Numbered from the stretch's first letter, positions 1 through 36,228 are shown. The stretch is DNA of 47,680 bases from an uncultured Candidatus Saccharibacteria bacterium (GCA_964401705.1 CAYNZJ010000001.1:69648-117327); one strand, 5' to 3'. The notes: a model not told the origin generated them from the sequence alone. Translations and numbers: made by a program.

Positions 1-454
1 ATTCGCCGTGGTTTTGCGAGACGGGTTGAATTGATAGTCGCGAGCCGGTTTGGGCAACCATAATGCCGGCAAGGTTTGGGTCAAACTTTATTTCGGCTAG
101 TGTAAGTGGCTTTTTAAGCTTTTTAACAAATTTAATATCAACGCAATACCAAATCGGCTTTTCAAGCGTTGCTTTTGGATCGTAATGTTCGTCGTTTTTA
201 TTAAACTGAGTTTCATCGGCATGGGCACCACTGCACACGCTGGCAATGCCGTATATACCAGTTGGATTTATTTTTGTACCATTTGAATGATAGAAAAACA
301 CAATATCGCCCACCGACATGTCGCGCATCATAAAATTGCGGGCTTGGTAATTGCGCACACCAGCCCAAGCGGTTTGTTTGTCATTTTGCAAATCATCAAT
401 ACCGTAACAATCGCCTTCGCTTTTCATTAACCAGTATTTTTTAGGATTTTTCAT
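1..454 (-). CDS. EVE (PUA-like) domain protein, C-terminal end cut by window edge
   Basis: Not in the ORF track because it runs off the edge. Reverse-strand ATG at 452-454. My translation: MKNPKKYWLMKSEGDCYGIDDLQNDKQTAWAGVRNYQARNFMMRDMSVGDIVFFYHSNGTK...GIYGIASV...WYCVDIKF. It fits the EVE-domain pattern (W.GVRNYQARNF, GD.V.FYHS). Visibly higher GC than the rest of the window. Confidence 0.6.
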   Translation of the reverse strand, partial: MKNPKKYWLMKSEGDCYGIDDLQNDKQTAWAGVRNYQARNFMMRDMSVGDIVFFYHSNGTKINPTGIYGIASVCSGAHADETQFNKNDEHYDPKATLEKPIWYCVDIKFVKKLKKPLTLAEIKFDPNLAGIMVAQTGSRLSIQPVSQNHGE

Positions 455-456
455 TA

Positions 457-1737
457 TTAGTTTTTTAAATATTTACAAAAATTTGTTTCGTTGAAGCTAT
501 AGCCTTGTTCAATTTGTTTACGGTCGATATTAAAATATTCAGGGTAAATATATGCGCCAAAATCTCCATAATATGCAATATTTGATCCATCACTTACCCG
601 TATATATGAAATACGCGGTGGCAAAGATGGTGAATCTTGAACCCTAACAATTTTAACCTTATCACCACACATGTATGTGGTTGTGGTATTTGTTTTTGGA
701 GGTGTTGGAACCTCAGGATTTTTAACTTCAGTTTTAAGTTTATCTTTTGTTAAAATAAAATATACATAATCCCATCTAATTTTCATTTCACCATTTTGGT
801 CTATTGTAAAATCTCTGAATGGATTCTCCTCAGAACAATTTGTTTTATAAGCTTTAATAACAAGATCATGCAAACCATCAATATATTTTTCAGGATTATC
901 TGCATTTAAAATAGTACAATGTTCATCTTTGTTAAAATTAAAATAATTTTCATCACCAGTTATACTCGCAAAATCAAAATATAATACATTATTTTTTATT
1001 TCTAAAACTTTACCCATCCATGCTTCTTCATCAACAGTTCCTAAATCTCTCATGACCCAGTCAAAATCTTTGACAAGCCATTTCCCATCAAGGTGTATTT
1101 TAGAAATATTAATACTTTCCTTAACATTTGAAAAAGCTTCTAAGAATGTCTTATAATCCTCATCATAAAAACTAACTAATTTTTCTTGATCTTGTAAATA
1201 TGTTGAATTTTTAACCTGTTCAGTAATCTTTGATTCCAACAAGGAACCGTTATAAAAGTAATGCTTAACCTTATTTAAATTTTCTGACATGAAGGAATAA
1301 TCTCCTGTATTTATTACACATACTAGTTGATCATTGTAAATATAATAATCAACATTAGATTCCAAATGATTACCCTCATAATCACCAAAGGTTTCCAAGG
1401 AAATTTTATATATCTTTTCGTTTTTTATGTAACCAACCAACTGAAAATCAATATCTCCTAATGGTTGATGTATTTGTAGTATATCAGGACGATTTTTATT
1501 GAAATGGCCTCGAAATAAGATCTTTACAGAATACTCATCAATTTGATCTGAAGTTTTTACAATTTCATCAATTTCTTGGATTTTTAATATTTTATCCTGA
1601 TTTCCCATCACAGCTAAATCTTCAACAACCTCCACCTTCTTCAAAAAATTTAAATTTAATGAATCGTTTAAATACAAATAATACCCCACACCCCCAAGCG
1701 TTATTATAATTATTGAAATTATTGTTAATTTTTTCAT
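457..1737 (-). CDS. hypothetical N-terminally membrane-anchored exported protein (array member 1)
   Basis: 426-aa ORF. N-terminal TM helix MKKLTIISIIIITLGGVGYYLYLNDSLNLNFLKK is related to the leaders of the next three ORFs. Only 1 nt separates it from the upstream ORF. Confidence 0.6.
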   Translation of the reverse strand: MKKLTIISIIIITLGGVGYYLYLNDSLNLNFLKKVEVVEDLAVMGNQDKILKIQEIDEIVKTSDQIDEYSVKILFRGHFNKNRPDILQIHQPLGDIDFQLVGYIKNEKIYKISLETFGDYEGNHLESNVDYYIYNDQLVCVINTGDYSFMSENLNKVKHYFYNGSLLESKITEQVKNSTYLQDQEKLVSFYDEDYKTFLEAFSNVKESINISKIHLDGKWLVKDFDWVMRDLGTVDEEAWMGKVLEIKNNVLYFDFASITGDENYFNFNKDEHCTILNADNPEKYIDGLHDLVIKAYKTNCSEENPFRDFTIDQNGEMKIRWDYVYFILTKDKLKTEVKNPEVPTPPKTNTTTTYMCGDKVKIVRVQDSPSLPPRISYIRVSDGSNIAYYGDFGAYIYPEYFNIDRKQIEQGYSFNETNFCKYLKN

Positions 1738-1738
1738 A

Positions 1739-2629
1739 TTATTTTTTGCAAGCTATTTTTAGTTCATCAACTCGATCTTTATCAAAATCAAGGAGTGTTC
1801 CATTTTCGCCCTCGTTCGTAATGGTTATGTCTGCAAGGGTTTCTTTGTCTATGTCTAATTCAAGCCATGCGACAGTTCCACCGTTTGAAATAATGTCACC
1901 TTTTTCATCAACTGTAGGACCAATACGTAAATTGATACGCATAATACCATTTTCTATACTATCAATTAATGTAAAAATCTTGTTTGGATTTTCTTCATAG
2001 ACATTTTTACCTGAAGTGTCTTTTCTAACCCTGAAGTTGTAGATATACTTCCCTTCTTGCTCTTTAGAAAGTTTATATAAAGAATTCTTATTGGCAAGAT
2101 TACTAGAATCTATTATATCCTCAGTCAAATAAGTACAGTCAGCTTGTTGGTGCACCATGTAGTAGCCAGCCCAACCCTTAGGGGCATCTCCTTGACCTTT
2201 TATATACCAGTTATGTGGATCATCATTTGTATGTATGAGATCTAAAATCATATCTGGGTACTTGTCATCATAGACAAATTTTATTTTTGTTCCATCTAAA
2301 AAGAATTTTCCTCTTGCCTTAACTGAAACTAAATTAGAAACATCATATTTTGTAGTTTTCTCACTTTCAAAAAAAGTTCCATCACTTTTTAGAATTATAT
2401 ATGCCGGTGCTGCGTGCGGTGTAAAATATTTACCTAAAATTTGAGGGTCAATTTTTACTATGCTCTCATCGGTCTTTTGCTCTTCTTTTACATCTTTAAT
2501 TTCCTCAACTATTGGTGCAGAATTGCTCCTCTGCAAAAACCCTAAATTTACCAAGTCTTTTGTGTATACAAAATACCCAGCACCAGCGAGGATTACGATT
2601 ATTAGGATTGTGATTAGTAATTTTTTCAT
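1739..2629 (-). CDS. hypothetical N-terminally anchored exported protein (array member 2)
   Basis: 296 aa. Leader MKKLLITILIIVILAGAGYFVYTKDLVNLGFLQ. Shares an internal PQILGKY...DGTF...GKFF.DG.KIKFVYDDK.P module with member 3. Confidence 0.65.
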   Translation of the reverse strand: MKKLLITILIIVILAGAGYFVYTKDLVNLGFLQRSNSAPIVEEIKDVKEEQKTDESIVKIDPQILGKYFTPHAAPAYIILKSDGTFFESEKTTKYDVSNLVSVKARGKFFLDGTKIKFVYDDKYPDMILDLIHTNDDPHNWYIKGQGDAPKGWAGYYMVHQQADCTYLTEDIIDSSNLANKNSLYKLSKEQEGKYIYNFRVRKDTSGKNVYEENPNKIFTLIDSIENGIMRINLRIGPTVDEKGDIISNGGTVAWLELDIDKETLADITITNEGENGTLLDFDKDRVDELKIACKK

Positions 2630-2632
2630 AGA

Positions 2633-3577
2633 CTATTCAAATTTTTTATAATTTTCATTAAAATATTTTTCTTCTTCGAATTCCAGCCCTTTCACTGCGA
2701 ATTGTTCAATTAATTTTCCATCCTGCCATTTTGTTGCACCAATCCCTCCTTTGTATATTTCGACTTTTTGACCTGACAAACCACTTCCGTCACTAAATTC
2801 CATGGTCCCATCAAATCGCATAGTGCCCTTGTAGATATTTTGACCATTTTCAATTTTAAAAAGATTATACTCCACATTATCAGTATAAGGAATGGAAACT
2901 CTTCTATAAAAATAGCTTGGATTCGATTTCAAAATTATATCTTGCTTTGTATAAGTATAATCTATGCCTCGTGAATCTGTCCCATAAATATTTCTATCCT
3001 TGATTTCTAAATTAACCTCCGGAGATTTATCATCGTAGACAAATTTAATTTTTAAACCATCTATAAAAAACTTACCTGAAGCTTGGGTAGGACGATTAGA
3101 AATAAAAGTTCCATCATTATTTAGTATAATATAATCTTCATCGCTATAAAGTGCAATGTATTTACCTAAAATTTGTGGTTCAACACCAGCAAATTTTTCA
3201 TCATGGCAAGATCCTCCATAAATTTCATTTGGTACATTATTATCTTTTAATATTTTACAGCCCGGGTCATCTTGAAAACTCGCCAAAATACTCCACTTAC
3301 CATCTTTTTTAATTGCTATATAATGTGAATCATAATAGATACCAGTAGCAAAATTATCCTTTATAAGATCAATTGTGTAATTACCAGATGTAAAACTTAA
3401 ATCTGATATTATTTTTGATTCTTCATTATTATTCTCAATTTTTAGATCTTCAACTACTGACGAAGGATTATCCCCCTTATTCAAAAACCCAAATTTTATA
3501 AAACTTTTCGAATATACAAAATACCCAGCGCCTGCGAGAATTAGAATTATTAAAATTGTGATTAAAGTTTTTTTCAT
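2633..3577 (-). CDS. hypothetical N-terminally anchored exported protein (array member 3)
   Basis: 314 aa. Leader MKKTLITILIILILAGAGYFVYSKSFIKFGFLNK. Carries the same GKFFIDGLKIKFVYDDKSPE module as member 2. Confidence 0.65.
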   Translation of the reverse strand: MKKTLITILIILILAGAGYFVYSKSFIKFGFLNKGDNPSSVVEDLKIENNNEESKIISDLSFTSGNYTIDLIKDNFATGIYYDSHYIAIKKDGKWSILASFQDDPGCKILKDNNVPNEIYGGSCHDEKFAGVEPQILGKYIALYSDEDYIILNNDGTFISNRPTQASGKFFIDGLKIKFVYDDKSPEVNLEIKDRNIYGTDSRGIDYTYTKQDIILKSNPSYFYRRVSIPYTDNVEYNLFKIENGQNIYKGTMRFDGTMEFSDGSGLSGQKVEIYKGGIGATKWQDGKLIEQFAVKGLEFEEEKYFNENYKKFE

Positions 3578-3578
3578 A

Positions 3579-4457
3579 TTATTCTATGCAAGTGTCCATT
3601 AATTTTTTATTTAATTCATCAACTTGTTTAGGGGTAATCTCGGTCTGTGTTTTGCCCTCTGGGATATAACTTTTATAAATAGAATTAATACAGCCCTCCT
3701 CCTCTTCAGGAGATTCATCCAAAAAATGACTATCAATAAGGACTGAAATTAATGTACTTTTTTGAGTTACTAAATTGTAATAATAATGAGCTACAGCAAA
3801 ATCACACATATTACAATCTGAACCTGCATTAAATTTTTCAGAGACACCAGGATAGGTGATTTCCATCAAGTCCATATTTGTAAGATGAGGCCAGTAATCT
3901 ACCCCATTATCTCTAAACTTCGTCCATGCCTTACCCAAGCCACCATGAGCCCTGTCACCAGAATGAATCTCTGTTTTTTTGTTCAAACTATTACCATCTT
4001 TCTTAAAAACAAATAAGGATGTAACAGTGCTTGATCCACCCATATTGTCTTCCGTTTGAACAATAATTTTATCTTTAAGGTCTTTTATTATTTTATAAGA
4101 AATTGACCCCCTGTAACTATCTTCTTGTTCAGGAAAAAGTATGTACCCTGAACCAATAAAACCATATTCATCTTTTTCTGTTTCAATTTTTTCAAATTCT
4201 TTATTACATTTTTCGATGTTTATGTTTTCATTAATTTCGAAACCTTCCCCAAAACATAAAGGGTGAATAAACCCTATTTCGGACTGCTCTACATTTTCAT
4301 TCTTAACCCCACTTTCAGTATTTACTGACGGTTGCTCAACTTCCCTCGCCTGCAAAAACCCTAAATTTATCAAACCTTTTGTATGAGCAAAATACCCAAG
4401 CCCAGCGAGGATTAGGATTATTAGGATTACTACTAGAGATTTTTTTGTGGAAGTCAT
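3579..4457 (-). CDS. hypothetical N-terminally anchored exported protein (array member 4)
   Basis: 292 aa. Leader MTSTKKSLVVILIILILAGLGYFAHTKGLINLGFLQ. Cys-rich ectodomain with no motif I recognise. Confidence 0.65.
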   Translation of the reverse strand: MTSTKKSLVVILIILILAGLGYFAHTKGLINLGFLQAREVEQPSVNTESGVKNENVEQSEIGFIHPLCFGEGFEINENINIEKCNKEFEKIETEKDEYGFIGSGYILFPEQEDSYRGSISYKIIKDLKDKIIVQTEDNMGGSSTVTSLFVFKKDGNSLNKKTEIHSGDRAHGGLGKAWTKFRDNGVDYWPHLTNMDLMEITYPGVSEKFNAGSDCNMCDFAVAHYYYNLVTQKSTLISVLIDSHFLDESPEEEEGCINSIYKSYIPEGKTQTEITPKQVDELNKKLMDTCIE

Positions 4458-8348: not shown

Positions 8349-8351
8349 AAA

Positions 8352-8380
8352 CCCCGTAAATCAATACGGGGTTATTTTTA
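8352..8380 (+). terminator. rho-independent terminator
   Basis: CCCCGTA / TACGGGG stem (8352-8371) followed by a TTATTTTTA run. Confidence 0.65.
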
Positions 8381-8463: not shown

Positions 8464-8889
8464 TCAGTCTAAAAATAGTATAAAAAATACTACGTTTATA
8501 AAAATAACTGGAATTATTAGTAATAAATTTTTATAAATATTATTTTTTAATATATATTTTTTAATAAAATATAAATATTTTCTAGTAAATAAAATTTCAA
8601 TAACAAAAATAAGAGTATAAAAAGATAATGGAATAAAATAATCAAAAAAATCAATACATTTACCACAAGAATTTATTATATTACTTAAAACAATTGATAA
8701 ACAAATAACTATAATTAATAAATAAAACCTATAGTTAATCTTTGAATTCTTTTCATTTAAAATTATAATAAAAATGTAAATTAAACTTATAGAAAGTGGA
8801 ATCAAAAAATCAAATAAACTAATACTTGCGAAATACCAAAAAATAAAACCTAATATAAGAACCAAGAACGAATAAATAATATAGTACAT
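8464..8889 (-). CDS. small polytopic membrane protein, candidate cognate immunity protein of the RHS toxin
   Basis: 141 aa with 4-5 predicted TM helices. Its start codon lies 5 nt after the RHS stop codon on the same strand. The immunity role is inferred from position alone. Confidence 0.5.
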   Translation of the reverse strand: MYYIIYSFLVLILGFIFWYFASISLFDFLIPLSISLIYIFIIILNEKNSKINYRFYLLIIVICLSIVLSNIINSCGKCIDFFDYFIPLSFYTLIFVIEILFTRKYLYFIKKYILKNNIYKNLLLIIPVIFINVVFFILFLD

Positions 8890-8893
8890 TCTA

Positions 8894-11800
8894 TTAATTA
8901 TAATTAACTATTAAATTTAGTGTTTTGTTATTAGGAACAAACCATCTATGAAATTCGGCTGAATTACTAATTAAATCGATACAACCCTTCGACCCAGGAC
9001 TTAATCCTCCATGAACATAAAAACCTGTTTCTTTAATATTATTCTCATTTCTAATCTCAGTTCTTACTGACCCCCACGACTTAACAGAGCCTGGCCAAAG
9101 TCCTTTTGCTAATAATGATCCCCCTATCTGTCTTGTTGGTAAATCAAAAAAATATTCTGTATCTTTTGGGTTCAACTTCCAATTACCTTCTGGGATAGGA
9201 TCATAAATCTCTGGTTTCCCTGATGTTGCTTTCCATTTTAATGAGCCTATCTCTGAATCATATATTCTACTATAAACGCTAAGATACTCATTATTAAAAT
9301 GTAACTCAGCATCATTAGTTGGTAATGATATAAACATACCTTCTTTTATTTTATTACTATCTTTTATTCCACTTGCATTTGCTATTTGAGACATATTTAA
9401 ATTCATTTCAAAATGTTTATTGATTCTATTTGTTATCCCACCTAACGTATCCCCTTTTTCAACTTCTCCGGTTTTTATATTAAATTTTCCATCCGGATCA
9501 ATATATTTTAATGGATTATTTGATGCATATGAATAACTATTCCATCTTTGAGGGTCAAGTATTAGCAATTCAAGCTTGGAATTATCAATCTCACGAACAA
9601 TTGGATCTTGTTGCCAGAAACGACCTTCACCCCCATGTTGATAACGAGCCTGCATAAAATTAAGACCAGTATCAATATCGTATTCATGACCAGTGTATTT
9701 ATGTGATTCATCAAAAGCCCCTGACTTTATATTTGAAAGAATCTGACCAAAAGGATAATATTCAATATCTTGAACTTTTAACGAACCAGCACTATCTGTA
9801 ACGATTTGTGTCCCTCCTAAGTAATCTGGATGAATATAATAAATATTTGAAGTTGCTGGTGTTGAACCTTCAAGAGTTGCAATTAGTTGATTTTCTAAAT
9901 AAATATATCTTTTATTTATTGTAGCATTTTCTTCAAAATATTTGCTAGGGTTATAAATTACCCCTGAAGAATTTGTAGTCTTAATTCTTGCCCCTGAATA
10001 ATCATAAAGATAAGTATTCAATATTGGATTTGGTGGAGTAATTTTTTGGTATTTAATCAATTCGTTTCTATAACTATAAGTTAAAACTGTATTATCTGGT
10101 GGATTTCCAAATTCAATAACATTACCATTTTTATCATAAATATAATCAATCCCGCCAACAGATGTAGCTGCATGTGGGTTAGCATAAACACCTGGTGCAG
10201 TACCATCATATAAATAAGAACCAACCCCGGTTTTGTTTAATATATTACCAACGGCATTATAAGAATAATTTTCAGAATAACCAGACAAAGGTGAACTTAC
10301 TGTTTTCGTTGCACTTGTTAAACGGGATAATCCATCATAATTATAATTAAATATTTGTGGATTAAGTGGGTTAAAATTCTCAATTTTTTGAGTTAGATTT
10401 CCTATTGTATCCCATTGATAATTTGTATCAATTAAATTAGGGTATGCATACGTTACCGGGGCATTTAATAAATTTCTTATTAATTGATATTGTTTGGAAT
10501 CATCATAAAAATAATTTTGAGTTCTACCATTTGCATATTTAATAGATTCTTTTTGTCCTAATACGTTATAGGAGATGTTATCTATAACACTGACCCATGG
10601 GCTAGTTGGAGTATTTTTTCGATCAATGTTAATAATTTGACTCAAATCATTATAGGTATACCTTACTAATAATTGGTCTGGGTATTTTATACTTAAAATA
10701 TTTCCTTGATTATCATATTCATAAAACAAACTCCATTTTTTTGTACCTAAAGATGTTGATTCTTCAGAAATTAACCCTCTGTTTGTATATATAAAATTTT
10801 TAATACTGGATCCAATTCGACTAACACTACACAGTCTTCCTATACCATTAGAACATGCGTCATAACTATAAGTTATTTGAGGCATACCATTATTTATCTC
10901 TCCAGTTACTCTATTAAGAGAATCGTAATTGTATCTTACATTATTACCATTTGGTGTTATTTTTTGGATCAAATTATTATTATCATCATACGAATATGAA
11001 TAAATACCGTAATTAGTGTCTGACACCTCATGTAAATCAGTTAATGTTAAAATATTTCCTAATGGATCATATTTTATTGATCTAACATTCCCCAAAGCAT
11101 CATTTATCTCTACTAAATTACCTAAAGTATCCCAAACATATTTTGTAGTATGGCTATTTAACCCATCATATTCAATAACGCTAGTAATCTTCCCGAAAGC
11201 ATTATAGATAATGTCTTTTTTATTATTCTTAGAATCAACTACAGTTGTTTTATTTAAATTATAGATATTAGTTGTAGTTCCTAAAGTATTAGTGATATAC
11301 AATGGTCGATTTAAATAATCATAACTCATTGTAGTTGTTATATTGTTATTTAAATTCGGACCATTATAACTAGAGAAATTGCTATTTAAAGTATAAGGTA
11401 ATGTTCTTTTATATTCTCTCCCCATATTATCATAAACAATATCACTAGCTATAAAAACAGACCCGTTTTTTTCTATTTTTCTAATCTCTCTACCTAACCC
11501 GTCTAAAATAATATAAGATTCACCTGTAAATATTGAATTATAATAATTGATTTTTTTAATATAAGAAGGAAGACCAGGTGAAAAAGTATCGTTATAATAA
11601 TAAATTGTGCTTATAACAAGAGGTGTATAAGAAAGATCACTAGAATTTTTTTCAATCAAAGGCCTTCCAAAACCATCAAACTCTGTTTCTTTTTCAAAAC
11701 CATTAGGGTCAATAGATTTTAAAACACCTCCATGATTATAATCATAAGTATAACTTGTGGTTTGAGACAAAGCATTAGTTACACTGCTTGGGTATAAATA

Positions 11801-14800
11801 ATAATAATCATAATTTATACTGTTTGTATTATTACGAGCATCTTTGACACTAGTAATCAACCCAAAAATATTATATGTATTTTTTATAGTTTGATAATTA
11901 ACACCCCCAGACCATATAGATTCACTAGTTTTATTACCAACAGAGGCATAACCAAATTGCAAATTATCATAATAAAAGATTTTTTCAGAAATACGATTAC
12001 CATTGTAATCTTTAAGTATAATTTTTGAAGGAAGAATTAATCCACTACAAACTACAAAGTTACAATTTGTGTAACTATATTCTGTTTTACGAATATCATT
12101 ATCAACATCAATAAAACTTTGATAATTATTAACACTAACCAGACCAAATTCTATTTTGTTTAATAAATTACCATTTTGAGTATCGTATAAATATGTTTCT
12201 GCTGTATCATATGAATTTCCTCCGTTAAAAGTGCGTGAGATTAATTGTTCTGTATAAATAAAGTTCGAATTTGTATTTTGAATTTTATTATTAAACCATT
12301 TTATAGTATTTTGTTTTAATAAATTATTATTGGGATCAAGTAAATCTATTCTGTAAACTTTACCAATTTTAGAATAATTATCATTAGTCTCACCATTTGA
12401 TATATCAGTATCATTAGCTTGATGATAATATGTTATTTCTTTTGTGTTATCAGGATTAATTTGTACAACCTTACTAAAGCCTGCAAATTTGCGATCAAAA
12501 GCATTATTGTAATAATATGACCCACCAGAATATTCATAACTGGTTTTTGTTGTGTTACCCAAACCATCATTTGTAATGATACTTTCAACAGTATTTAAAT
12601 TTATTGGTAAATTTGGATTTAATAAATTCCCCGAGGTATCTTTATACTGAGAAGATTTTTTATAAGATATTTCTGATACTGCCCCTGTCCCATATTCAAT
12701 CTTTGAAAGCAAATCAGGTATTTTATTACCTTTGTTTATATAAGCAATTGTTACAGTTGGGGTACTATTTTGTGTTCTTAAAAAATCAACAAAACCATCA
12801 GAATTAATATCTGCGATTACAACAGGATTTGACATTAAAGAATTATTTGGAACTGTTAAATCCCAAATAGGTTTATAAACCCAACCATTACCAGTATTTA
12901 AATATGTACCTCGATTACCTCCTGTTTGATTAACTGGATCAATAACAATATCAATTAAATTATCACTATTTACATCTAAAAATCTAACCCCTTGATCATA
13001 GTAATTATTTGCTAGAATTATTGGTAATAACCAATTTGTATTATTAACCCACCCTGTATCACCCTTGTTTAAATACGCAAATGAAGGTTCTGTAAGATTA
13101 TACCAATGCTTAGATACTGCATCAGCTAAACCATCAGCATTAATATCAACCATTCTATTTGTGGTAAAAGTTAATTCATCAATAGGGGGATTCCAATTTG
13201 TAGTAATATTTGTAAAACCATAACCAGTATTTAATTGTTCACCAGTGATACTACCTTGACTCCTAATAATATCTGGTAAAGTGTCTCCATTTAAATCAAC
13301 TAAATGCGTACCATAATCATGAATATCAAATCTCCCGGTAAAAGGAATTTTAGGCTCCCAATTAAGGTCTTTAACCCAACCATTTATTTTGTCGTAAATA
13401 TATGTATGATAAATATCACCACGAACAAGACTATTATAACTACCACCATTGGCAGACTGAACAATATCTGGTAATTGATCGCCATTTATATCAGCAACAC
13501 GAACACCTTGGTCCCAAACATTACCATAAGCTCCGCCCCTAACCTCAAAATTCAAAAACGTTATTGGAATTTTAAAATCACTATCACCTTTCCAGTCTTT
13601 ATTTGTTGTATGGTTATAAAGTACTTTATCATAGTGAAAAGGTCCGGTACTAAGATTTTGTCCATATCTATCAACAGACTGTATTATATCAACCCAAGAA
13701 TCCCCTTTAATATCTATAGCCATTTCATGATTATCCCCCAAAAGTACTGGTGATGACCAATTTACACTATCTTCATCCCACCCAGGAGTTGTTTTTTGAT
13801 AAGTAAATTTTGAAGGTGGTAGTGTTTTTATAACACCGTTTTTATCTTTAGAAGATAAAGTTATTGAATTAATTAAAGATCTAAAACCATTGTCACCTGT
13901 TGTATATGTTATTACATATTTTTTAACCCAATTACCATTTACTTTTGCCTGTATTTCATTAATCCGGTAACTTGTTGTAACTTTAAAAGCTGTTTTATAT
14001 GATGTATATGAATCGCTTCTTATTTCTCTAAAAAACTCAACCTCAAAAATCCCAGGGGAATTTGAATGCTCTGTGTAATTTATTTTTTGTGGGTAAATTT
14101 CTCCAGCATCTTTATAATATTTATAAGTTATATAGTTCCCATTTAAATCACGTTTTTCATCAAGCATCCATTTATAAACTTGATTTGTATTTGATATATT
14201 ATCTTGTCTTGAATCTGCATTTGTTCCAAATTTATAAGTTACACCAGATTTATCTTTAAAAACCCAAGAATTATTTGTTAAAAAATATTCATGGAAACCT
14301 CCATTATCCACTCTTGGTCTATATACACCTGGACTTATTTCGATTAGTTCTCCATCTATTGAAGATGTAAAATATTTTTCTGAATAAATTTTTTCAGAAC
14401 CATTTTTATTTACTCTTTCAATATAAGGTATATCTAACCCCCAAGAATACCCAAAAACACCGCCATTTTCGTTCTCTTGTGAATTATAATTAATATTAAT
14501 TTCTGGAGTCATACCTAGTCTTCCTTGAGGTATAGTTATAGGATAACTATAATTCATAGCTCCTGTTATTAAATCTGTTTTTGGTTTTGATCCATAAAGA
14601 CCATCAAGTTTACCTGTTGGATATTCCGTTTTACCACCAACACCATTAGAAGATAGAGATTGTTCAGCTTCTGGGGTTATCTCTTTATTTTCATCATTAT
14701 TAAGATTAATATCAGGGTCTTCTTCTAATGGAACAACTTGATCAAGATTTTCTGGAACTACAGGATCTGTGGACAATTTATCTTGAGAGACATCTTTTAC

Positions 14801-14998
14801 TTCTAAAGTAGTTTCATCTATAATATCTGAATTTAAATTATCTAAAACTACATTTTCCTGAATTGTTTGGGAAGTTTGTTCTTCTGCAAAAACTACTGAT
14901 AATGGGCTTATAAAAAAACAAAAAACCACTAAATAAATTAGTGGCTTTTTATATAAAGTTAAATAATTATTAGTTTGCCATAAGAATGGTCTATTCAT
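8894..14998 (-). CDS. secreted SpvB/TcB-like + FG-GAP + RHS/YD-repeat polymorphic toxin (TcB-TcC-like cocoon) with a LysM/Tlde1-like C-terminal tip
   Basis: 2034 aa. Signal peptide (LVVFCFFISPLSVVFA|EE). SpvB-like motif TGAMNYSYPITIPQGRLGMTPEININYNS at about aa 145-175. Five D.N.D...D FG-GAP/VCBS-type repeats at aa 425-745 (DINGDQLPDIV, DLNGDTLPDII, DINADGLADAV, DVNSDNLIDIV, DINSDGFVDFL). TcdB-mid-like YEYSGGSYYYNNAFDRKFAGFSKV. Many YD repeats (Y.YD..GN). RHS end motif NPLKYIDPDGK at about aa 1828-1838, then a 196-aa tip. Confidence 0.9.
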   Translation of the reverse strand: MNRPFLWQTNNYLTLYKKPLIYLVVFCFFISPLSVVFAEEQTSQTIQENVVLDNLNSDIIDETTLEVKDVSQDKLSTDPVVPENLDQVVPLEEDPDINLNNDENKEITPEAEQSLSSNGVGGKTEYPTGKLDGLYGSKPKTDLITGAMNYSYPITIPQGRLGMTPEININYNSQENENGGVFGYSWGLDIPYIERVNKNGSEKIYSEKYFTSSIDGELIEISPGVYRPRVDNGGFHEYFLTNNSWVFKDKSGVTYKFGTNADSRQDNISNTNQVYKWMLDEKRDLNGNYITYKYYKDAGEIYPQKINYTEHSNSPGIFEVEFFREIRSDSYTSYKTAFKVTTSYRINEIQAKVNGNWVKKYVITYTTGDNGFRSLINSITLSSKDKNGVIKTLPPSKFTYQKTTPGWDEDSVNWSSPVLLGDNHEMAIDIKGDSWVDIIQSVDRYGQNLSTGPFHYDKVLYNHTTNKDWKGDSDFKIPITFLNFEVRGGAYGNVWDQGVRVADINGDQLPDIVQSANGGSYNSLVRGDIYHTYIYDKINGWVKDLNWEPKIPFTGRFDIHDYGTHLVDLNGDTLPDIIRSQGSITGEQLNTGYGFTNITTNWNPPIDELTFTTNRMVDINADGLADAVSKHWYNLTEPSFAYLNKGDTGWVNNTNWLLPIILANNYYDQGVRFLDVNSDNLIDIVIDPVNQTGGNRGTYLNTGNGWVYKPIWDLTVPNNSLMSNPVVIADINSDGFVDFLRTQNSTPTVTIAYINKGNKIPDLLSKIEYGTGAVSEISYKKSSQYKDTSGNLLNPNLPINLNTVESIITNDGLGNTTKTSYEYSGGSYYYNNAFDRKFAGFSKVVQINPDNTKEITYYHQANDTDISNGETNDNYSKIGKVYRIDLLDPNNNLLKQNTIKWFNNKIQNTNSNFIYTEQLISRTFNGGNSYDTAETYLYDTQNGNLLNKIEFGLVSVNNYQSFIDVDNDIRKTEYSYTNCNFVVCSGLILPSKIILKDYNGNRISEKIFYYDNLQFGYASVGNKTSESIWSGGVNYQTIKNTYNIFGLITSVKDARNNTNSINYDYYYLYPSSVTNALSQTTSYTYDYNHGGVLKSIDPNGFEKETEFDGFGRPLIEKNSSDLSYTPLVISTIYYYNDTFSPGLPSYIKKINYYNSIFTGESYIILDGLGREIRKIEKNGSVFIASDIVYDNMGREYKRTLPYTLNSNFSSYNGPNLNNNITTTMSYDYLNRPLYITNTLGTTTNIYNLNKTTVVDSKNNKKDIIYNAFGKITSVIEYDGLNSHTTKYVWDTLGNLVEINDALGNVRSIKYDPLGNILTLTDLHEVSDTNYGIYSYSYDDNNNLIQKITPNGNNVRYNYDSLNRVTGEINNGMPQITYSYDACSNGIGRLCSVSRIGSSIKNFIYTNRGLISEESTSLGTKKWSLFYEYDNQGNILSIKYPDQLLVRYTYNDLSQIINIDRKNTPTSPWVSVIDNISYNVLGQKESIKYANGRTQNYFYDDSKQYQLIRNLLNAPVTYAYPNLIDTNYQWDTIGNLTQKIENFNPLNPQIFNYNYDGLSRLTSATKTVSSPLSGYSENYSYNAVGNILNKTGVGSYLYDGTAPGVYANPHAATSVGGIDYIYDKNGNVIEFGNPPDNTVLTYSYRNELIKYQKITPPNPILNTYLYDYSGARIKTTNSSGVIYNPSKYFEENATINKRYIYLENQLIATLEGSTPATSNIYYIHPDYLGGTQIVTDSAGSLKVQDIEYYPFGQILSNIKSGAFDESHKYTGHEYDIDTGLNFMQARYQHGGEGRFWQQDPIVREIDNSKLELLILDPQRWNSYSYASNNPLKYIDPDGKFNIKTGEVEKGDTLGGITNRINKHFEMNLNMSQIANASGIKDSNKIKEGMFISLPTNDAELHFNNEYLSVYSRIYDSEIGSLKWKATSGKPEIYDPIPEGNWKLNPKDTEYFFDLPTRQIGGSLLAKGLWPGSVKSWGSVRTEIRNENNIKETGFYVHGGLSPGSKGCIDLISNSAEFHRWFVPNNKTLNLIVNYN
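8897..9253 (-). other. Tlde1/DUF2778-like (L,D-transpeptidase-fold) module at the extreme C-terminus of the RHS protein
   Basis: WKATSGKPEIYDPIPEGNWKLNP ... GFYVHGGLSPGSKGCIDL. The SG....PIP.G.W and H-x9-C (S.GCI) arrangement resembles DUF2778/Tlde1 and the YkuD catalytic His/Cys. Recalled from memory of the family, not searched. Confidence 0.5.
9323..9469 (-). other. LysM-like peptidoglycan-binding module within the RHS C-terminal tip
   Basis: Tip residues about 6-54: VEKGDTLGGITNRINKHFEMNLNMSQIANASGIKDSNKIKEGMFISLP. This fits the LysM pattern (V..GDTL..IA......... L...N.l....i..Gq.l.iP). Confidence 0.55.
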
Positions 14999-15006
14999 AT
15001 GAGTGG

Positions 15007-15036
15007 ATTATACCTCGACTATATTTAGTTTGGCAA
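15007..15036 (-). promoter_or_regulatory. promoter of the RHS gene (TTGCCA-N18-TATAAT), ATG 8 nt after the -10 box
   Basis: On the minus strand: TTGCCA (15031-15036), 18-nt spacer, TATAAT (15007-15012), CCACTCAT, then the ATG at 14998. No SD sequence, so leaderless or nearly so. Confidence 0.45.
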
Positions 15037-15069
15037 ATTTAATTGTGGAAAACTCCCCTAATTATATCA

Positions 15070-15092
15070 ACTTGGAGGTCCGACCTCCAAGT
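15070..15092. repeat. REP-like 23-bp perfect palindrome, copy 1 (central C)
   Basis: ACTTGGAGGTC-C-GACCTCCAAGT. Lies 4 nt downstream of the RAYT stop codon and directly upstream of a TGATATAAT box facing the RHS gene. Confidence 0.9.
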
Positions 15093-15095
15093 AAG

Positions 15096-15719
15096 TTACT
15101 TTGGATCTAAATCTTCTTTCCTTTTACAAATATCTTTCCAAGTAATGTCAGCATATTTCTTATATTCTCCAACATTCGTATATTGCCCTAAAACTATACT
15201 GGTATCACAAATAGATTCATTGGTTTTGTTTAAATACTCATCAAGACTTGATTTACTCAACTTGGAGGTCGGACCTCCAAGTGAATCTAAGTTATTATAG
15301 TTAACATAAACAGATAAATGTAATAAATATCTATCGTCTGGTATATATTTAGATTTAAATTTACCTTGAAATAAGACACCATTCCTATTATATTTTTCAT
15401 TAAAATACATTGTGTACCCACCAAATCTTTGCATAAATTTTTCAATACCCTTGTCTATTAAGGGAGTTAAGATTAAATGAAAATGATTCGGATTAATACA
15501 ATACGCAACGATATCTACCAACTTGGAGGTCGGACCTCCAAGTGAATCTTTTCTAAAAGAATTTTCATAAATACTACCAATTGGTTTTTCTGTGTTAAAT
15601 TCTATAAGACTTTGCACAAAACGATTTAGATCTTCTTTATCTAAAATTATATCGCGTTTATCTGACCCACGATTATAGATATGATAGTATTGCCCTATTT
15701 CAAAACTATGCTTTCTCAT
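15096..15719 (-). CDS. IS200-like Y1 (HUH) transposase / REP-associated tyrosine transposase (RAYT)-like
   Basis: 207 aa. YHIYNRGSDKRDIILDKEDLNRF, HUH motif NPNHFHLIL, GVLFQGKFKSK, and a Tyr-containing YVNYN motif. Flanked and interrupted by the 23-bp palindrome. Confidence 0.8.
   Translation of the reverse strand: MRKHSFEIGQYYHIYNRGSDKRDIILDKEDLNRFVQSLIEFNTEKPIGSIYENSFRKDSLGGPTSKLVDIVAYCINPNHFHLILTPLIDKGIEKFMQRFGGYTMYFNEKYNRNGVLFQGKFKSKYIPDDRYLLHLSVYVNYNNLDSLGGPTSKLSKSSLDEYLNKTNESICDTSIVLGQYTNVGEYKKYADITWKDICKRKEDLDPK
15260..15282. repeat. REP-like palindrome, copy 2 (central G), inside the RAYT CDS
   Basis: ACTTGGAGGTC-G-GACCTCCAAGT within the shared 31-mer CAACTTGGAGGTCGGACCTCCAAGTGAATCT. 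Encodes DSLGGPTSKL in frame. Confidence 0.9.
15521..15543. repeat. REP-like palindrome, copy 3 (central G), inside the RAYT CDS
   Basis: Same 31-mer as copy 2. It also encodes DSLGGPTSKL in frame, just upstream of the HUH motif. Confidence 0.9.
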
Positions 15720-15733
15720 ATAATTATTATACT

Positions 15734-15756
15734 ACTTGGAGGTCCGACCTCCAAGT
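15734..15756. repeat. REP-like palindrome, copy 4 (central C), overlapping the RAYT promoter
   Basis: On the minus strand: ACTTGGAGGTCGGACCTCCAAGT-AG-TATAAT-AATTAT-ATG. The palindrome supplies a TTGGAG -35-like hexamer (15749-15754) and the 17-nt spacer. Confidence 0.9.
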
Positions 15757-15853
15757 AAAGTACAAGTTGGATTTGTGGTGGGGGGGGTACAGATGGGGGT
15801 CCTTGTTTTATCTGTTTTGGTAGGAATTTTTTTATTATTATTTATTTTTATTT

Positions 15854-21668: not shown

Positions 21669-22664
21669 TTAAAGTAAACTTTTTACAGCACTAATTATAT
21701 CTTTGGTGCCCATGCCATAATGTTCGATTAATTCATCGGGTGTACCAGATTGACCAAATTTATCCTTCACTCCGATAAATTTAATTTTTATTGGATGATT
21801 TTGTGCTAAAAATTCAGCAATTGCACTACCCATACCGCCGGCGATTTGATGTTCTTCGACAGTTACAATGCCGGATAATTTTTTACCACCATTTTGTACA
21901 AATTCTAAAACTCCAATTTCATCTAGTGGTTTAATTGTAGGCAATGCTAACACTGATACAAATATTTTTTCTTTTTCTAATTCTTGGGCTACGGACAAGG
22001 TTTTGTGTACCAATGCCCCTGTTGCAATTATACCGACTTTGGCTGGTTTACTAGGTGTCCAATAAACATATGATTTCCCTATTTCAAAAGGGGTTTTGTT
22101 AGTTGTGATTATTGGTGTTTTTTCTCGAGCAAGCCTTAAGTAAGTTGGATTTTTTGTTTTAGAACAAGCAATAGTTGCTAAACTAGCTTGAATACTATCT
22201 ACAGGAGAAATTACACACATATTTGGGATAATACGCATTAAAGCAATATCTTCAATGGCTTGGTGCGTACCACCGTCAGGTCCAACAGATATTCCAGCAT
22301 GAGAGCCGACAATTACAACTTTACGATCATTATATGAAATAGTTGTGCGGATTTGCTCCCAATTACGACCTGGGCTAAACATTGCATAAGAAGACACAAA
22401 AGGAATCTTACCCATAGCCGACATCCCACTGGCAACAGTAACTAAATTTTGTTCAGCAACACCGACTTCGATAAAACGATTTGGAAATTTGTCGCGAAAC
22501 AAATGCATTTGAGTGGATTCGGTCAAATCAGCACAAATTCCAACGATGTTTTTATTTTTCTCTCCAGCTAAAAGCAAACCCTCACCAAATCCTTTACGAA
22601 TTGGTAGTTGTTCCACATCATTGTCGAACATTTTATCATTTAAATTTAAATTTGGATTTAGCAT
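21669..22664 (-). CDS. tkt: transketolase, C-terminal (pyrimidine-binding) subunit
   Basis: 331 aa. RKGFGEGL, EVGVAEQNLV, SHAGISVGPDGGTHQAIEDIA and EEHQIAGGMGS motifs. Confidence 0.9.
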   Translation of the reverse strand: MLNPNLNLNDKMFDNDVEQLPIRKGFGEGLLLAGEKNKNIVGICADLTESTQMHLFRDKFPNRFIEVGVAEQNLVTVASGMSAMGKIPFVSSYAMFSPGRNWEQIRTTISYNDRKVVIVGSHAGISVGPDGGTHQAIEDIALMRIIPNMCVISPVDSIQASLATIACSKTKNPTYLRLAREKTPIITTNKTPFEIGKSYVYWTPSKPAKVGIIATGALVHKTLSVAQELEKEKIFVSVLALPTIKPLDEIGVLEFVQNGGKKLSGIVTVEEHQIAGGMGSAIAEFLAQNHPIKIKFIGVKDKFGQSGTPDELIEHYGMGTKDIISAVKSLL

Positions 22665-22676
22665 GTTATTTAAAAA

Positions 22677-23543
22677 TTATTGATGTTCACTAATTATTTT
22701 ACCACCTAATGTGCGGAGTTCACGTAAGGCCATTTCAGCTTCTTCTTTATTTGGTGGTTTACCATGCCATTTGTAATCACGTTCAAATTCAGCAACCCCA
22801 CGCCCTGGGATTGTACGTGCAATAATAACTGATGGCTTTTCAGGGACAGCTTTGGCTTTATTAATAGCATTAAATACTGATTCAAAATTATGACCATCGA
22901 CTTCTTCTATATGCCAATTAAATGATTTCCATTTTTCAGCAAGATCATCCAGTGGCATTATGTCTTCGGTATTACCATCGATTTGAATATTGTTACGATC
23001 AACAATAGCAATTAAATTATTAAGTTTATATTTTGCTCCAAGCATTATAGCTTCCCAAGTGTTGCCTTCATTATGTTCCCCATCACTCATTAAACAATAT
23101 ATAAACCGGTTAGTATGAACTGAGTCAGACATTTTATCAGCCAATGCCATACCAACGGCCTGGGAAAGTCCAGATCCAAGTGGACCAGAACTATTTTCCA
23201 GCATTGGTAAATATTCGCGATGTGGATGACCTTGAAGACGGCTCCCAAATTTACGCAGTGTCATTAATTCTTCGACTGGGAAATACCCACTATGTGCCAT
23301 ACTAGCGTAAAGTACTGGACAAATATGACCATTAGATAAGACAAGACGGTCTCTTTGTTCCCAATCTGGTTTTTTAGGATTATGATTTAAAACTTTAAAA
23401 TAAAGTAGCGCAAAAATATCTGCCATACCCAGTGGTCCTGCAGTGTGGCCAGACTTAGCCTCGAGTAACATTGTAATAATGCTTTGCCGAATATCATTGG
23501 CTTTTTGTTCTAGGTTTTTTAATTCAGCATTTTCTAAAAACAT
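22677..23543 (-). CDS. tkt: transketolase, N-terminal (TPP-binding) subunit
   Basis: 288 aa. SGHTAGPLG, LSNGH, GPLGSGLSQAVGMA, MSDGEHNEGNTWEA and DRNNIQIDG motifs. Split-gene arrangement with the preceding ORF. Confidence 0.9.
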   Translation of the reverse strand: MFLENAELKNLEQKANDIRQSIITMLLEAKSGHTAGPLGMADIFALLYFKVLNHNPKKPDWEQRDRLVLSNGHICPVLYASMAHSGYFPVEELMTLRKFGSRLQGHPHREYLPMLENSSGPLGSGLSQAVGMALADKMSDSVHTNRFIYCLMSDGEHNEGNTWEAIMLGAKYKLNNLIAIVDRNNIQIDGNTEDIMPLDDLAEKWKSFNWHIEEVDGHNFESVFNAINKAKAVPEKPSVIIARTIPGRGVAEFERDYKWHGKPPNKEEAEMALRELRTLGGKIISEHQ

Positions 23544-34815: not shown

Positions 34816-36228
34816 TTATTCATCTTGTAGAAGATATTCATCAGACTCTATTTCAAGGTTTTTATTATTTAATCTTATAAATAACACTGAAAAAACAGAG
34901 ATTAGGATAACAATAGAAAACCCAATATATTTGTAAATATTTTGATTTTTATTAGTGCTAGGTTTTTCATCTAAATTTAAAATGGTTTCATTATTTGGGA
35001 TAAATGAATCAAGTTGGTTATTTAAATCAGAGGAAATACTAGGACTAGATTTATAAACTGAGGATATTGATTTTGAGTTAGAATTAATATTTGTTTTATT
35101 TACAAAACTAGCAGTAGTATATCCTGATGGAGATAGTATTTTTATATTATCTTTAGAATAAGAACCCATAGGAAGTTTAATAAAAATTTCATCTTTGGCT
35201 CCAATATAAGTGCCTTCAGGTATTTTTATATTTTGAGAATCTGTTTGAATTATATAATTACTAATATCATATTCTGAATCTTTAGTATTTGAAATGCTAA
35301 TAGCAGGGAAAGGATTTAAAGATAGATCCTTTAAAATTAATGGTGAGTTAATTATATTAATGGTGGTTTTACCAATAGCAATTGGCTTTGGATACCAAGA
35401 GGCGTATTTATAGCTTAAACTAACAGTATAATCCCCAGGGAAAGCATAAATATGATCAACTTCTTGGTTTGTATTAACAACCAAAGTTTCTCCATCACCA
35501 AAATTCCAAGTAAAAACTCCTTGAGTTATATTTTCCCCAGAAAACCCAAAAATTTGAACCCGAAAAACTGCAGGTTGCCCAACGATATTTGTTTGATTAT
35601 ACATAAAATCAAAACGCATCGAGGGTTCCTTTTTATAAGGAATGAATCCTAAACCAGAAGGACTTACCTCTTGAGGTAGATTATTGTTTAGCGTACTATC
35701 TGTATTGTTATTTATATTGTTTTGTGTTGAGTTTGTGGTTAAATTTAAATCACCCGCAAACCAAGACCCGCTAGAATTTTGTTGCAAGGTTTTACCATCT
35801 CCATTTGCTCCTAATGAAGGGGTATAAGTAATTTCATATACAATATTTCCATCAGGGTCTTTAATCGCTAGTGATTCCCCTTTATCATTAGATAAAGAAA
35901 AAGACGAATCATAAAGATTCGACTTTGGGAAATTAGGATTATCATTTAAAAAATTTGTGGCATTATCAGCGATGATTGCATATTCATTATTTGCTAGTTC
36001 GGAATTACCATCAAAATGAACAATACTATGTGCTACCCCAGATTCTACTAATTTATATTTGGTTAAATCAATATTTAAACCTGTTTTGTTGTGAACTTCA
36101 ACCCATTCTCGAGATGAATCCGACCCAGGCAAATCATACATTATCTCAGTAATATTTATACTACCAGCATATGCTGTATTAAAAAAAAGGAAAAAAGAAA
36201 AAATAAAGATTAAATGACAAGATTTCAT
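34816..36228 (-). CDS. secreted lamin-tail-domain (LTD) + PKD-domain protein with a C-terminal TM anchor
   Basis: 470 aa with a signal peptide. LTD-like INITEIMYDLPGSDSSREWVEVHN. PKD-like FTWNFGDGE...HIYAFPGDYTVSL. C-terminal TM helix. Confidence 0.65.
   Translation of the reverse strand: MKSCHLIFIFSFFLFFNTAYAGSINITEIMYDLPGSDSSREWVEVHNKTGLNIDLTKYKLVESGVAHSIVHFDGNSELANNEYAIIADNATNFLNDNPNFPKSNLYDSSFSLSNDKGESLAIKDPDGNIVYEITYTPSLGANGDGKTLQQNSSGSWFAGDLNLTTNSTQNNINNNTDSTLNNNLPQEVSPSGLGFIPYKKEPSMRFDFMYNQTNIVGQPAVFRVQIFGFSGENITQGVFTWNFGDGETLVVNTNQEVDHIYAFPGDYTVSLSYKYASWYPKPIAIGKTTINIINSPLILKDLSLNPFPAISISNTKDSEYDISNYIIQTDSQNIKIPEGTYIGAKDEIFIKLPMGSYSKDNIKILSPSGYTTASFVNKTNINSNSKSISSVYKSSPSISSDLNNQLDSFIPNNETILNLDEKPSTNKNQNIYKYIGFSIVILISVFSVLFIRLNNKNLEIESDEYLLQDE

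Follow-up and report, generated by a model that had tools for sequence, protein, structure and literature searches.

The present analysis concerns a 47,680-nucleotide stretch of DNA deposited under an uncultured Candidatus Saccharibacteria bacterium (GCA_964401705.1, CAYNZJ010000001.1:69648-117327), hereafter called the window, and in particular a large RHS gene located there together with the small gene behind it. With a probability that we put at about 0.72, the two genes form a polymorphic toxin-immunity module, in which a cargo made of a LysM domain and a Tlde1-type enzyme domain would be released from a Sec-exported RHS cocoon. This reading is carried by the domain identities of the toxin, the fold of its terminal domain, the conservation of a histidine, a serine, and a cysteine in that domain, a cassette swap between two loci, and a conserved membrane-protein neighbor. 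The toxin is thus a well-supported example of an RHS cargo that is expected to act on the cell wall and not in the cytoplasm.

The toxin gene (8894..14998, on the minus strand like the domains of the toxin and the gene behind it) was delimited by the list of open reading frames (ORFs) and by translation, and it encodes 2034 aa followed by a stop codon. The Pfam domains of the protein are, in order, SpvB, FG-GAP_3, TcdB_toxin_midN, DUF6443 with RHS_repeat, and LysM, to which an NCBIfam scan adds YD_repeat_2x and Rhs_assc_core. The SpvB / TcB N-terminal domain (aa 145-314, 14057..14566; PF03534, E 5.8e-15) precedes FG-GAP beta-propeller repeats, whose best Pfam stretch covers aa 618-686 (PF13517) and which lie just upstream of the TcdB_toxin_midN domain (aa 726-856, 12431..12823; PF12256, E 7.1e-18); this succession ahead of an RHS shell is the front-end layout of the BC component of Tc toxins. 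The RHS/YD-repeat shell extends over approximately aa 1165-1746 (9761..11506) and is documented by RHS_repeat (E 1.2e-20), DUF6443, the TIGR01643 YD repeat (E 2e-17), and a precomputed TEN_YD-shell match. Judged by its domain order, the carrier is an RHS cocoon of the fused TcB/TcC-like kind whose C-terminal tip is polymorphic, and the nearest solved sequences are the Rhs proteins 7Q97, 8CP6, and 8QJA from type VI secretion systems (T6SS). Inspection of the translation furthermore revealed a predicted Sec signal peptide (aa 1-38, 14885..14998), which comprises a KK pair and a 19-residue hydrophobic stretch (LIYLVVFCFFISPLSVVFA) and is likely cut between VFA and EE.

The shell is closed by the Rhs-associated core (aa 1747-1838, 9485..9760), for which TIGR03696 scores 56.7 bits on aa 1747-1837 (cutoff 32.5) and is covered from position 1 to 75 of its 76 positions. 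The core ends with ..NNPLKYIDPDGK, a motif of the autoproteolysis type, and the junction reads ..YIDPDGK/F (the slash marks the predicted cut), so that the cargo starts at F1839; self-cleavage of the toxin at DPDGK/F is predicted from this motif. The cargo accordingly corresponds to the last 196 residues (ca. 22 kDa) at 8897-9484, directly behind ..NNPLKYIDPDGK, and begins with FNIKTGEVEKGDTLGG. The earlier note on this DNA had placed an RHS payload at these coordinates, starting right after the YIDPDGK motif, and both the interval and all of the peptides it quoted were recovered once the minus strand was read; the start is visible in the minus-strand translation, directly behind the Rhs-associated core. 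A plus-strand reading of 8897-9484 was rejected, as its translation is full of stop codons.

The terminal 141 aa of the cargo (aa 1894-2034, 8897..9319) represent a Tlde1-like / Tox-LD-peptidase toxin domain of the YkuD fold, as indicated by homologues, a profile, an AlphaFold (AF2) model, and Foldseek. When 1.84 billion representative proteins were searched exhaustively with phmmer, 514 homologues were obtained at E<=1e-3, of which 58 reached E<=1e-10, and in almost all of the homologues the domain is located at the extreme C-terminus. PF10908 (Tlde1_dom) is matched by 112 of the 149 representative homologues (103 + 9) and YkuD by 61 (57 + 4), whereas in the 40-sequence domain alignment the respective numbers are 34/40 and 30/40. 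When compared with the PDB, the single sequence yielded only noise in phmmer (e.g., BubA and MsrB, E>0.2), while the family profile retrieved Tlde1a only (7UMA, 7UO3, and 7UO8; E 6e-8), with ..fiHGGaepGSaGCIDL.. aligned onto ..YIHDSTKGYSHGCIEV.. of Tlde1a and WG onto W93-G94. The domain was modeled with a predicted local distance difference test score (pLDDT) of 95.5 and a predicted template modeling score (pTM) of 0.89, and the top Foldseek match of this model is again Tlde1a (7UMA_A; E 7.2e-6, probability 1.00, TM 0.61). Each of the 15 Foldseek matches at E<0.05 is an enzyme of the YkuD fold or a related one that acts on the wall; Bd1075, YkuD, Ldt(Mt), Ldt(fm), DpaA, and Pgp2 are among them, and a probability of 1.00 was also assigned to YkuD-fold enzymes. 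These data support the assignment of the domain as a predicted Tlde1-type, YkuD-fold Cys/His peptidase. The earlier note had read the tip as a Tlde1/DUF2778-like domain of the L,D-transpeptidase fold and had named a profile or structure match to Tlde1/YkuD as the test of this idea; such matches were found with both methods, and family profiles, the confident model with its Foldseek results, and the genomic logic all agree with that reading.

The predicted catalytic residues of the toxin are H1996 (tip H158, 9011..9013) and C2006 (tip C168, 8981..8983), the latter within the motif S-K-G-C-I-D-L; the codons of both were checked. Together with S2003 they align at identical spacing to H121, S128, and C131 of Tlde1a, and the segment HGGLSPGSKGC at 8981-9013 displays the H-x9-C spacing. 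The histidine is invariant in alignments A1, A3, and A4 and the cysteine in A1 and A3, with at least 90% conservation in A4; a serine at the position of S128 is present in 236 of 240 relatives. In the 40-sequence alignment, no variation is seen at W82, G83, H103, G104, G105, G112, and C113, and hardly any at S110. The motif and the His/Cys pair in an H-x9-C context, which the earlier note had taken as marks of the Tlde1 family, are therefore correct. Tlde1a itself is a toxin with L,D-carboxypeptidase and exchange activity, for which H121 and C131 are required (PMC9638812).

The cargo opens with a LysM domain of 55 aa (PF01476; aa 1839-1893, 9320..9484), which scores 26.4 bits on the tip alone (cutoff 20.9; E 6.6e-6, tip residues 8-55) and 22.8 bits in the whole protein. 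An AlphaFold model of the full tip, calculated from a 15-sequence alignment of full tips (mean pLDDT 92.9, pTM 0.88), shows a beta-alpha-alpha-beta arrangement for residues 1-55, with helices 14-25 and 31-37 flanked by strands and a pLDDT of ca. 95-98. Foldseek superposes this part onto 4UZ2, 5YLG, and 4PXV with an rmsd of 1.7-3.4 A over about 50 residues, at E values that are weak as the domain is small. What had earlier been described as a LysM-like segment is accordingly a LysM domain above the curated cutoff, whose fold agrees in model and Foldseek. LysM domains bind assembled peptidoglycan via its glycan strands. With this segment as the seed, jackhmmer identified 27 tips in which LysM adjoins the toxin domain, and their loci include those of Ca. 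Saccharibacteria, Kaiserbacteria, Paceibacterota, Nostoc, Lentimicrobiaceae, and Bacteroidales. A DPxG[LMKR]/F junction (mostly [LM]) is seen immediately ahead of LysM in about 20 of these tips, and nearly all of the 27 have a linker of 4-7 residues between LysM and the Tlde1-like domain.

The modular nature of the tip is documented by locus L084 from another sequencing run or sample, which shares 93% nucleotide identity with the window (blastn, L084 positions 1-3738 versus window positions 12656-9418). The identity of the two RHS genes stops at a recombination breakpoint (9418..9418, minus strand), 22 codons into the tip, and past this point L084 continues with a segment that resembles LysM but stays slightly below the cutoff (19.8 bits), an Ntox44 domain (47.5 bits), and a different downstream gene. 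Judging from this alignment, the relation between L084 and the window is a classic RHS cassette swap, and the tip together with its putative immunity gene behaves as a swappable cassette. No characterization of the activity of Ntox44 was found in our literature search. The gene after the tip of L084 encodes a small signal-peptide protein, and the RHS gene of L084 has a frameshift or premature stop at ..YIHPDYLGGHKLLQIVLVR*, due to which the gene caller split off P0001, a 245-aa "orphan" that starts inside the Rhs core. P0001 was also the only relative detected in a word-indexed homologue search, where the match was due to the Rhs core and the beginning of LysM and not to the toxin part.

Further carriers were found beyond this pair of loci, with a six-sequence alignment serving for the profile scan of genomes for relatives. 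The sister protein P0003 (locus L082) has a length of 2012 aa and combines SpvB, RHS, and LysM with a Tlde1-like domain sharing 50% identity with that of the window, and the N-termini of P0003 and of another sister protein, P0004, are equivalent to the Sec-like N-terminus of our toxin. Distant homologues of the toxin domain are attached to RTX, Hcp, DUF4280 (PAAR-like), eCIS-core, DUF637, and Phage_Mu_F carriers, and some of them exhibit PG_binding_1 in place of LysM.

The candidate immunity gene (8464..8889, minus strand) starts 5 nt after the stop codon of the toxin, and its product is, according to translation and hydropathy, a polytopic membrane protein of 141 aa in which about five segments are hydrophobic. 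It has no Pfam family at E<=1. In L082, the ORF that immediately follows P0003 proved homologous to the candidate by BLASTP (E 8e-10, 29% identity over 126 aa), and the two proteins share the motif SC.KC..F.D[FY].IPLS.Y; jackhmmer detected no homologue of the candidate among the 78 ORFs located downstream of the toxins in related loci, the sister locus L082 being the only one with a counterpart. A small protein of 86-177 aa with two to five transmembrane (TM) segments is encoded directly after the toxin in 76 of 80 related loci, and such a conserved small TM neighbor fits an immunity role; the downstream protein of the window, which is conserved beside the sister toxin, is likely the immunity protein. 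Immunity of the Tldi1a/DUF2195 type was rejected, as the ORF lacks a Pfam match and has about five hydrophobic segments versus the soluble, signal-peptide-bearing periplasmic type. Transmembrane domains are present in the Tai7 immunity proteins (Tlde1c type), in contrast to the DUF2195 partner of Tlde1a, which is periplasmic (10.1101/2020.02.18.954545), and the protein of the window resembles Tai7, as known from this description, in being a TM-containing protein.

Among the 78 downstream ORFs (L004-L081), 61 form one BLAST cluster of approximately 100-aa proteins with three TM segments (e.g., L005 2667-2969 and L012 4420-4719), whose usual neighbors are short Tlde1-like toxins from Alphaproteobacteria of gut and rumen, Ca. 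Enterousia among them, and which probably represent the unnamed Tai7/Tldi1c-type immunity family. The downstream proteins of L002 and L003 share a 5-TM type. No Pfam family above threshold was found in the seven downstream proteins that were scanned, among them the cluster members L005, L012, and L006. In L082, a second membrane-protein gene follows the sister toxin (9512-9967) and may be a second or orphan immunity gene; it shows a sub-threshold match to Acyl_transf_3 (22.6 bits versus a cutoff of 31), and its BLASTP similarity to the 5-TM proteins of L002 and L003 (E 0.039 with that of L003) is only suggestive.

Two further elements lie at the edges of the module. A GC-rich palindromic hairpin (8350..8373) is located between the immunity gene and a convergent HAD-like gene; the terminator scan found one such site versus 0.1 expected, and the hairpin is likely a bidirectional terminator that closes the toxin-immunity operon. 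Just upstream of the ATG of the toxin gene, a consensus scan identified a promoter-like site (15007..15036, minus strand) with TTGCCA, an 18-nt spacer, and TATAAT (11/12 consensus matches), in a region where the count of such sites is not above the shuffle expectation. The adjacent sequence contains a perfect 23-nt palindrome (ACTTGGAGGTC[C/G]GACCTCCAAGT) in four copies within window positions 15062-15763 (at 15070, 15260, 15521, and 15734), for which 0 copies are expected by chance and of which none occurs elsewhere in the window. Two copies flank, and two more lie inside, an ORF at 15096-15719 (minus strand) that encodes 207 aa with a weak IS200-like Y1_Tnp match, and the internal copies are translated in frame as ..DSLGGPTSKL..; this arrangement directly upstream of the RHS gene looks RAYT/REP-like or RPE-like.

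About 30 ORFs of the window were scanned for domains. They include a split transketolase, Rpe, RpiB, GAPDH, aldolase, GatB, Obg, FtsW/RodA, two aminoacyl-tRNA synthetases, CreD, and a cyclophilin, and the GC content of the window is approximately 30%. This gene content and the taxonomy of the closest relatives of the tip suggest that the chromosome probably belongs to the Patescibacteria, i.e., the candidate phyla radiation (CPR). No T6SS, PAAR, or VgrG gene was present among the scanned ORFs of the 47.7-kb window, and the toxin has no T6SS domain; no ORF of TcA size and no TcA domains were detected in the same set, with a TcA elsewhere in the genome being possible. Delivery by a T6SS was rejected on account of the missing T6SS genes in the scanned ORFs and the Sec-like signal on the toxin, and the T6SS-effector context that the earlier note gave for Tlde1 does not apply to this protein in view of the Sec-type signal and the TcB/TcC-like front end.

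Several other observations relate to the surroundings of the module. The transketolase is encoded by two genes (21669-23543, minus strand), one for the N-terminal thiamine pyrophosphate-binding half and one for the Pyr/C-terminal half, in a run with Rpe, RpiB, GAPDH, a class-II aldolase, and a PfkB kinase that fits a reduced, CPR-like metabolism. A 470-aa protein with a lamin-tail domain followed by PKD domains (34816-36228, minus strand) is likely a surface or adhesion protein. Four consecutive ORFs at 457-4457 (minus strand), which encode proteins of 426, 296, 314, and 292 aa, have no Pfam family at E<=1e-4, and this uncharacterized block adjoins the cyclophilin gene and a CreD-like gene. 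The window contains no tRNA genes and no Rfam matches. The same toxin gene is present on a contig of assembly GCA_013565695.1, for which no paper was found, and the species representatives of GTDB yielded no match of 100%.

By analogy with Tc/Rhs cocoons and with Tlde1a, from which we infer secretion, self-cleavage, and encapsulation as well as the exact reaction, the target, and the immunity function, the module could operate as follows. The 2034-aa protein would be exported by Sec and fold into a TcB/TcC-like RHS cocoon, whose aspartyl-protease core would cut after ..DPDGK while the 196-aa cargo stays enclosed. The cargo would be set free, as a wall enzyme sufficient in itself, at a neighboring cell, where LysM would dock on the glycan strands of peptidoglycan and the Cys/His enzyme (H1996, S2003, and C2006) would attack the L,D bond of the stem peptides. 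What is expected at the fourth stem-peptide residue is L,D-carboxypeptidase trimming, D-amino-acid exchange, or both; the target would thereby lose usable tetrapeptide acceptors and donors, its cross-linking would be starved, and its wall would be weakened. The producer would be shielded by the polytopic membrane protein encoded 5 nt downstream. If the wall of the target is exposed, no membrane crossing would be required.

A number of points weigh against this reading. The toxin domain of the window has no direct Pfam match at E<=1 and none in NCBIfam, and its membership in the Tlde1 family hence rests on homologues and fold because its own sequence is below any Pfam threshold. No mechanism is known by which an RHS cocoon is emptied when a TcA or T6SS partner is missing, and neither partner was found in the window. 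A polytopic membrane protein would be an unusual antidote for an enzyme that acts on the mature wall. LysM may not be tied to wall-acting cargo, and its role is ambiguous because the tip with Ntox44 also begins with a LysM-like segment. Finally, the active site deviates from that of Tlde1a at two positions. The second histidine of the (S/T)HGC motif (Tlde1a H129) is replaced by lysine in the copy of the window (S-K-G-C), and among the 240 relatives this position is occupied by alanine in 181, arginine in 16, asparagine in 13, and lysine in 8, and never by histidine; the equivalent of Tlde1a R115 is a glutamate, whereas the arginine is kept in 211 of the 240 relatives. These two replacements indicate that the reaction or the substrate may differ from that of Tlde1a. 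The H129A variant of Tlde1a retained D-amino-acid exchange and lost most of its cross-linking activity (PMC9638812), and in the light of this behavior a bias of the enzyme of the window toward carboxypeptidase or exchange chemistry would be a reasonable expectation.

Alternative explanations start from the same observations. An epibiotic CPR cell might use the enzyme not for killing but as a tool for interaction with its host, whose wall would be edited or softened for attachment or nutrients, while the membrane protein would shield the wall synthesis of the producer. The closest genomic relatives of the tip, from Ca. Saccharibacteria, Kaiserbacteria, and Paceibacterota, all combining RHS, LysM, and a Tlde1-like domain, would suit such a role, as would the CPR-like genes of the window (the split transketolase, a minimal sugar metabolism, and the surface protein with lamin-tail and PKD domains) and a Sec signal without an injection apparatus, which fits action on an exposed wall. 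We nevertheless regard this explanation as unlikely, since the LysM-Tlde1 cassette also occurs in free-living Nostoc, Lentimicrobiaceae, and Bacteroidales and since the swap of tip and immunity gene between near-identical shells is a hallmark of interbacterial competition. Slightly less probable still is a substrate other than the mature wall, be it lipid-linked precursors at the membrane surface or a different L,D or amide bond, for instance that between lipoprotein and peptidoglycan addressed by DpaA/LdtF. A substrate at the membrane surface would explain the integral-membrane partner, and thus the pairing of the toxin with a small 2-5 TM protein in 76 of 80 loci; a pocket that differs from Tlde1a by the missing second histidine and by the R115 equivalent, which is often absent from this clade, and the presence of the non-crosslinking YkuD-fold enzymes DpaA and Bd1075 among the structural matches, point in the same direction. 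This proposal has to contend with the affinity of LysM for the glycan strands of assembled peptidoglycan. In addition, TM-anchored immunity is known for the periplasmic, wall-acting Tlde1c/Tae7 (10.1101/2020.02.18.954545), so that anchoring need not mean a membrane substrate.

It is highly improbable that the tip is no toxin at all, i.e., that a housekeeping YkuD-like LysM and L,D-transpeptidase unit was fused to a large surface protein or that the tip is decayed and inactive. The succession of LysM and a YkuD-fold domain is indeed the plan of Bacillus subtilis YkuD (1Y7M, with the fold matched by Foldseek), and the alteration of the canonical SHGC to SKGC would be compatible with a housekeeping function or with decay. 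A housekeeping role was rejected, however, because the domain follows the cleavage motif of the Rhs core, is found C-terminally on many unrelated toxin carriers, and is swapped as a cassette with its neighbor gene, and the proposal as a whole is further contradicted by the conservation of His, Ser, and Cys across 240 relatives, the intact ORF, and the confident AF2 model. The toxin-immunity module with a LysM-Tlde1 cargo therefore remains the preferred interpretation.

A more far-reaching combination of the findings is offered here tentatively, and we consider it doubtful as a whole. The cocoon cargo might cross no membrane, and a Sec-secreted shell of monoderm or CPR lineages might set free a ready-made L,D-peptidase that is anchored by its LysM where the wall of a neighbor or host is exposed. 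The unit of a DPxGL/F junction, LysM, a Tlde1-like domain, and a small membrane protein would then be a mobile cassette across CPR, Bacteroidota, and Cyanobacteria, the histidine-less S-A/K-G-C variant would define a mechanistically distinct branch of Tlde1, and the membrane-embedded immunity protein may work beyond the plugging of an active site.

The probable CPR setting is relevant because little is known about how these bacteria attack or manipulate others. The module moreover raises the questions of whether LysM targets the cargo to the wall of the victim, how Tlde1-type chemistry proceeds without the second histidine, and how small polytopic proteins neutralize a wall enzyme. None of these points overturns current views, as RHS-borne L,D-peptidases and Rhs-DUF2778 fusions are already in the literature. 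The Tox-LD-peptidase domain with its H, S, and C residues was reported on RHS repeats by Zhang et al. 2012 (Biol Direct 7:18, PMC3482391), with delivery by the type II secretion system (T2SS), T6SS, and TcdB/TcaC, was predicted to compromise the cell wall, and LysM was listed there among the accessory adhesion domains of toxins. Rhs-DUF2778 fusions are reported in 387 of 3510 genomes (11%) of one Tlde1 subfamily (10.1101/2020.02.18.954545), and LysM-bearing wall hydrolases of the T6SS are already known. The suggestion in the earlier note that the combination had not been described consequently fails for the RHS-borne enzyme itself and holds for LysM inside the cargo, which was absent from the literature searched. 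We regard three features as modestly new, namely, the LysM domain inside the cargo (at least 25 examples from several phyla), the T6SS-free and probably CPR setting, and S-K-G-C in place of S-H-G-C.

Compared with known systems, the toxin resembles the Tox-LD-peptidase toxins, with which it shares the C-terminal position on RHS proteins, a linked (here putative) immunity gene, and a predicted action on stem peptides, and for which the listed delivery types include Sec/T2SS and TcdB/TcaC. The catalogue of these toxins pairs the domain with Imm16 and Imm57, whereas the partner in the window is an unclassified polytopic membrane protein; the placement of LysM right after the Rhs cleavage site and within the cargo is not found in PMC3482391, which does not cover CPR lineages. 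Tlde1a (Tae5) of Salmonella Typhimurium provides the best profile and structure match, shares H121, S128, C131, and W93-G94, and is an antibacterial wall-editing effector with an adjoining immunity gene, just as the tip has an adjoining candidate. It is, however, a small stand-alone T6SS cargo with soluble periplasmic DUF2195 immunity, whereas the protein of the window has a predicted Sec signal and a LysM domain fused N-terminally to the enzyme domain.

The YkuD of B. subtilis consists of LysM and a catalytic domain and thus has the same two-domain plan as the cargo. Together with LdtMt, Ldtfm, Bd1075, and Csd6/Pgp2, this housekeeping enzyme (1Y7M) shares the YkuD beta-sandwich and the His/Cys dyad, but the housekeeping L,D-enzymes are neither encapsulated nor polymorphic, lack an immunity gene, contain the canonical SHGC, and exhibit only 14-19% identity in structural alignments. 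The WapA/Rhs proteins of B. subtilis and S. suis (WapA-CT1) are, as is predicted for our toxin, Sec-exported RHS cocoon toxins of monoderms, and the S. suis WapA carries LysM repeats (PMC12704120). Those repeats lie at the N-terminus and tether the toxin to the wall of the producer, and the WapA tips are nucleases, whereas the LysM of the window is located past the cleavage site, in the cargo. TcB-TcC and the T6SS Rhs cocoons (Photorhabdus Rhs 7Q97 and Tse5 8CP6) finally have SpvB, the beta-propeller, TcdB_midN, the RHS shell, the core motif, and a variable tip in common with the carrier described here, which differs from them by the lack of TcA, PAAR, and VgrG in the window and by a cargo that is predicted to act outside the target membrane and not in the cytosol.

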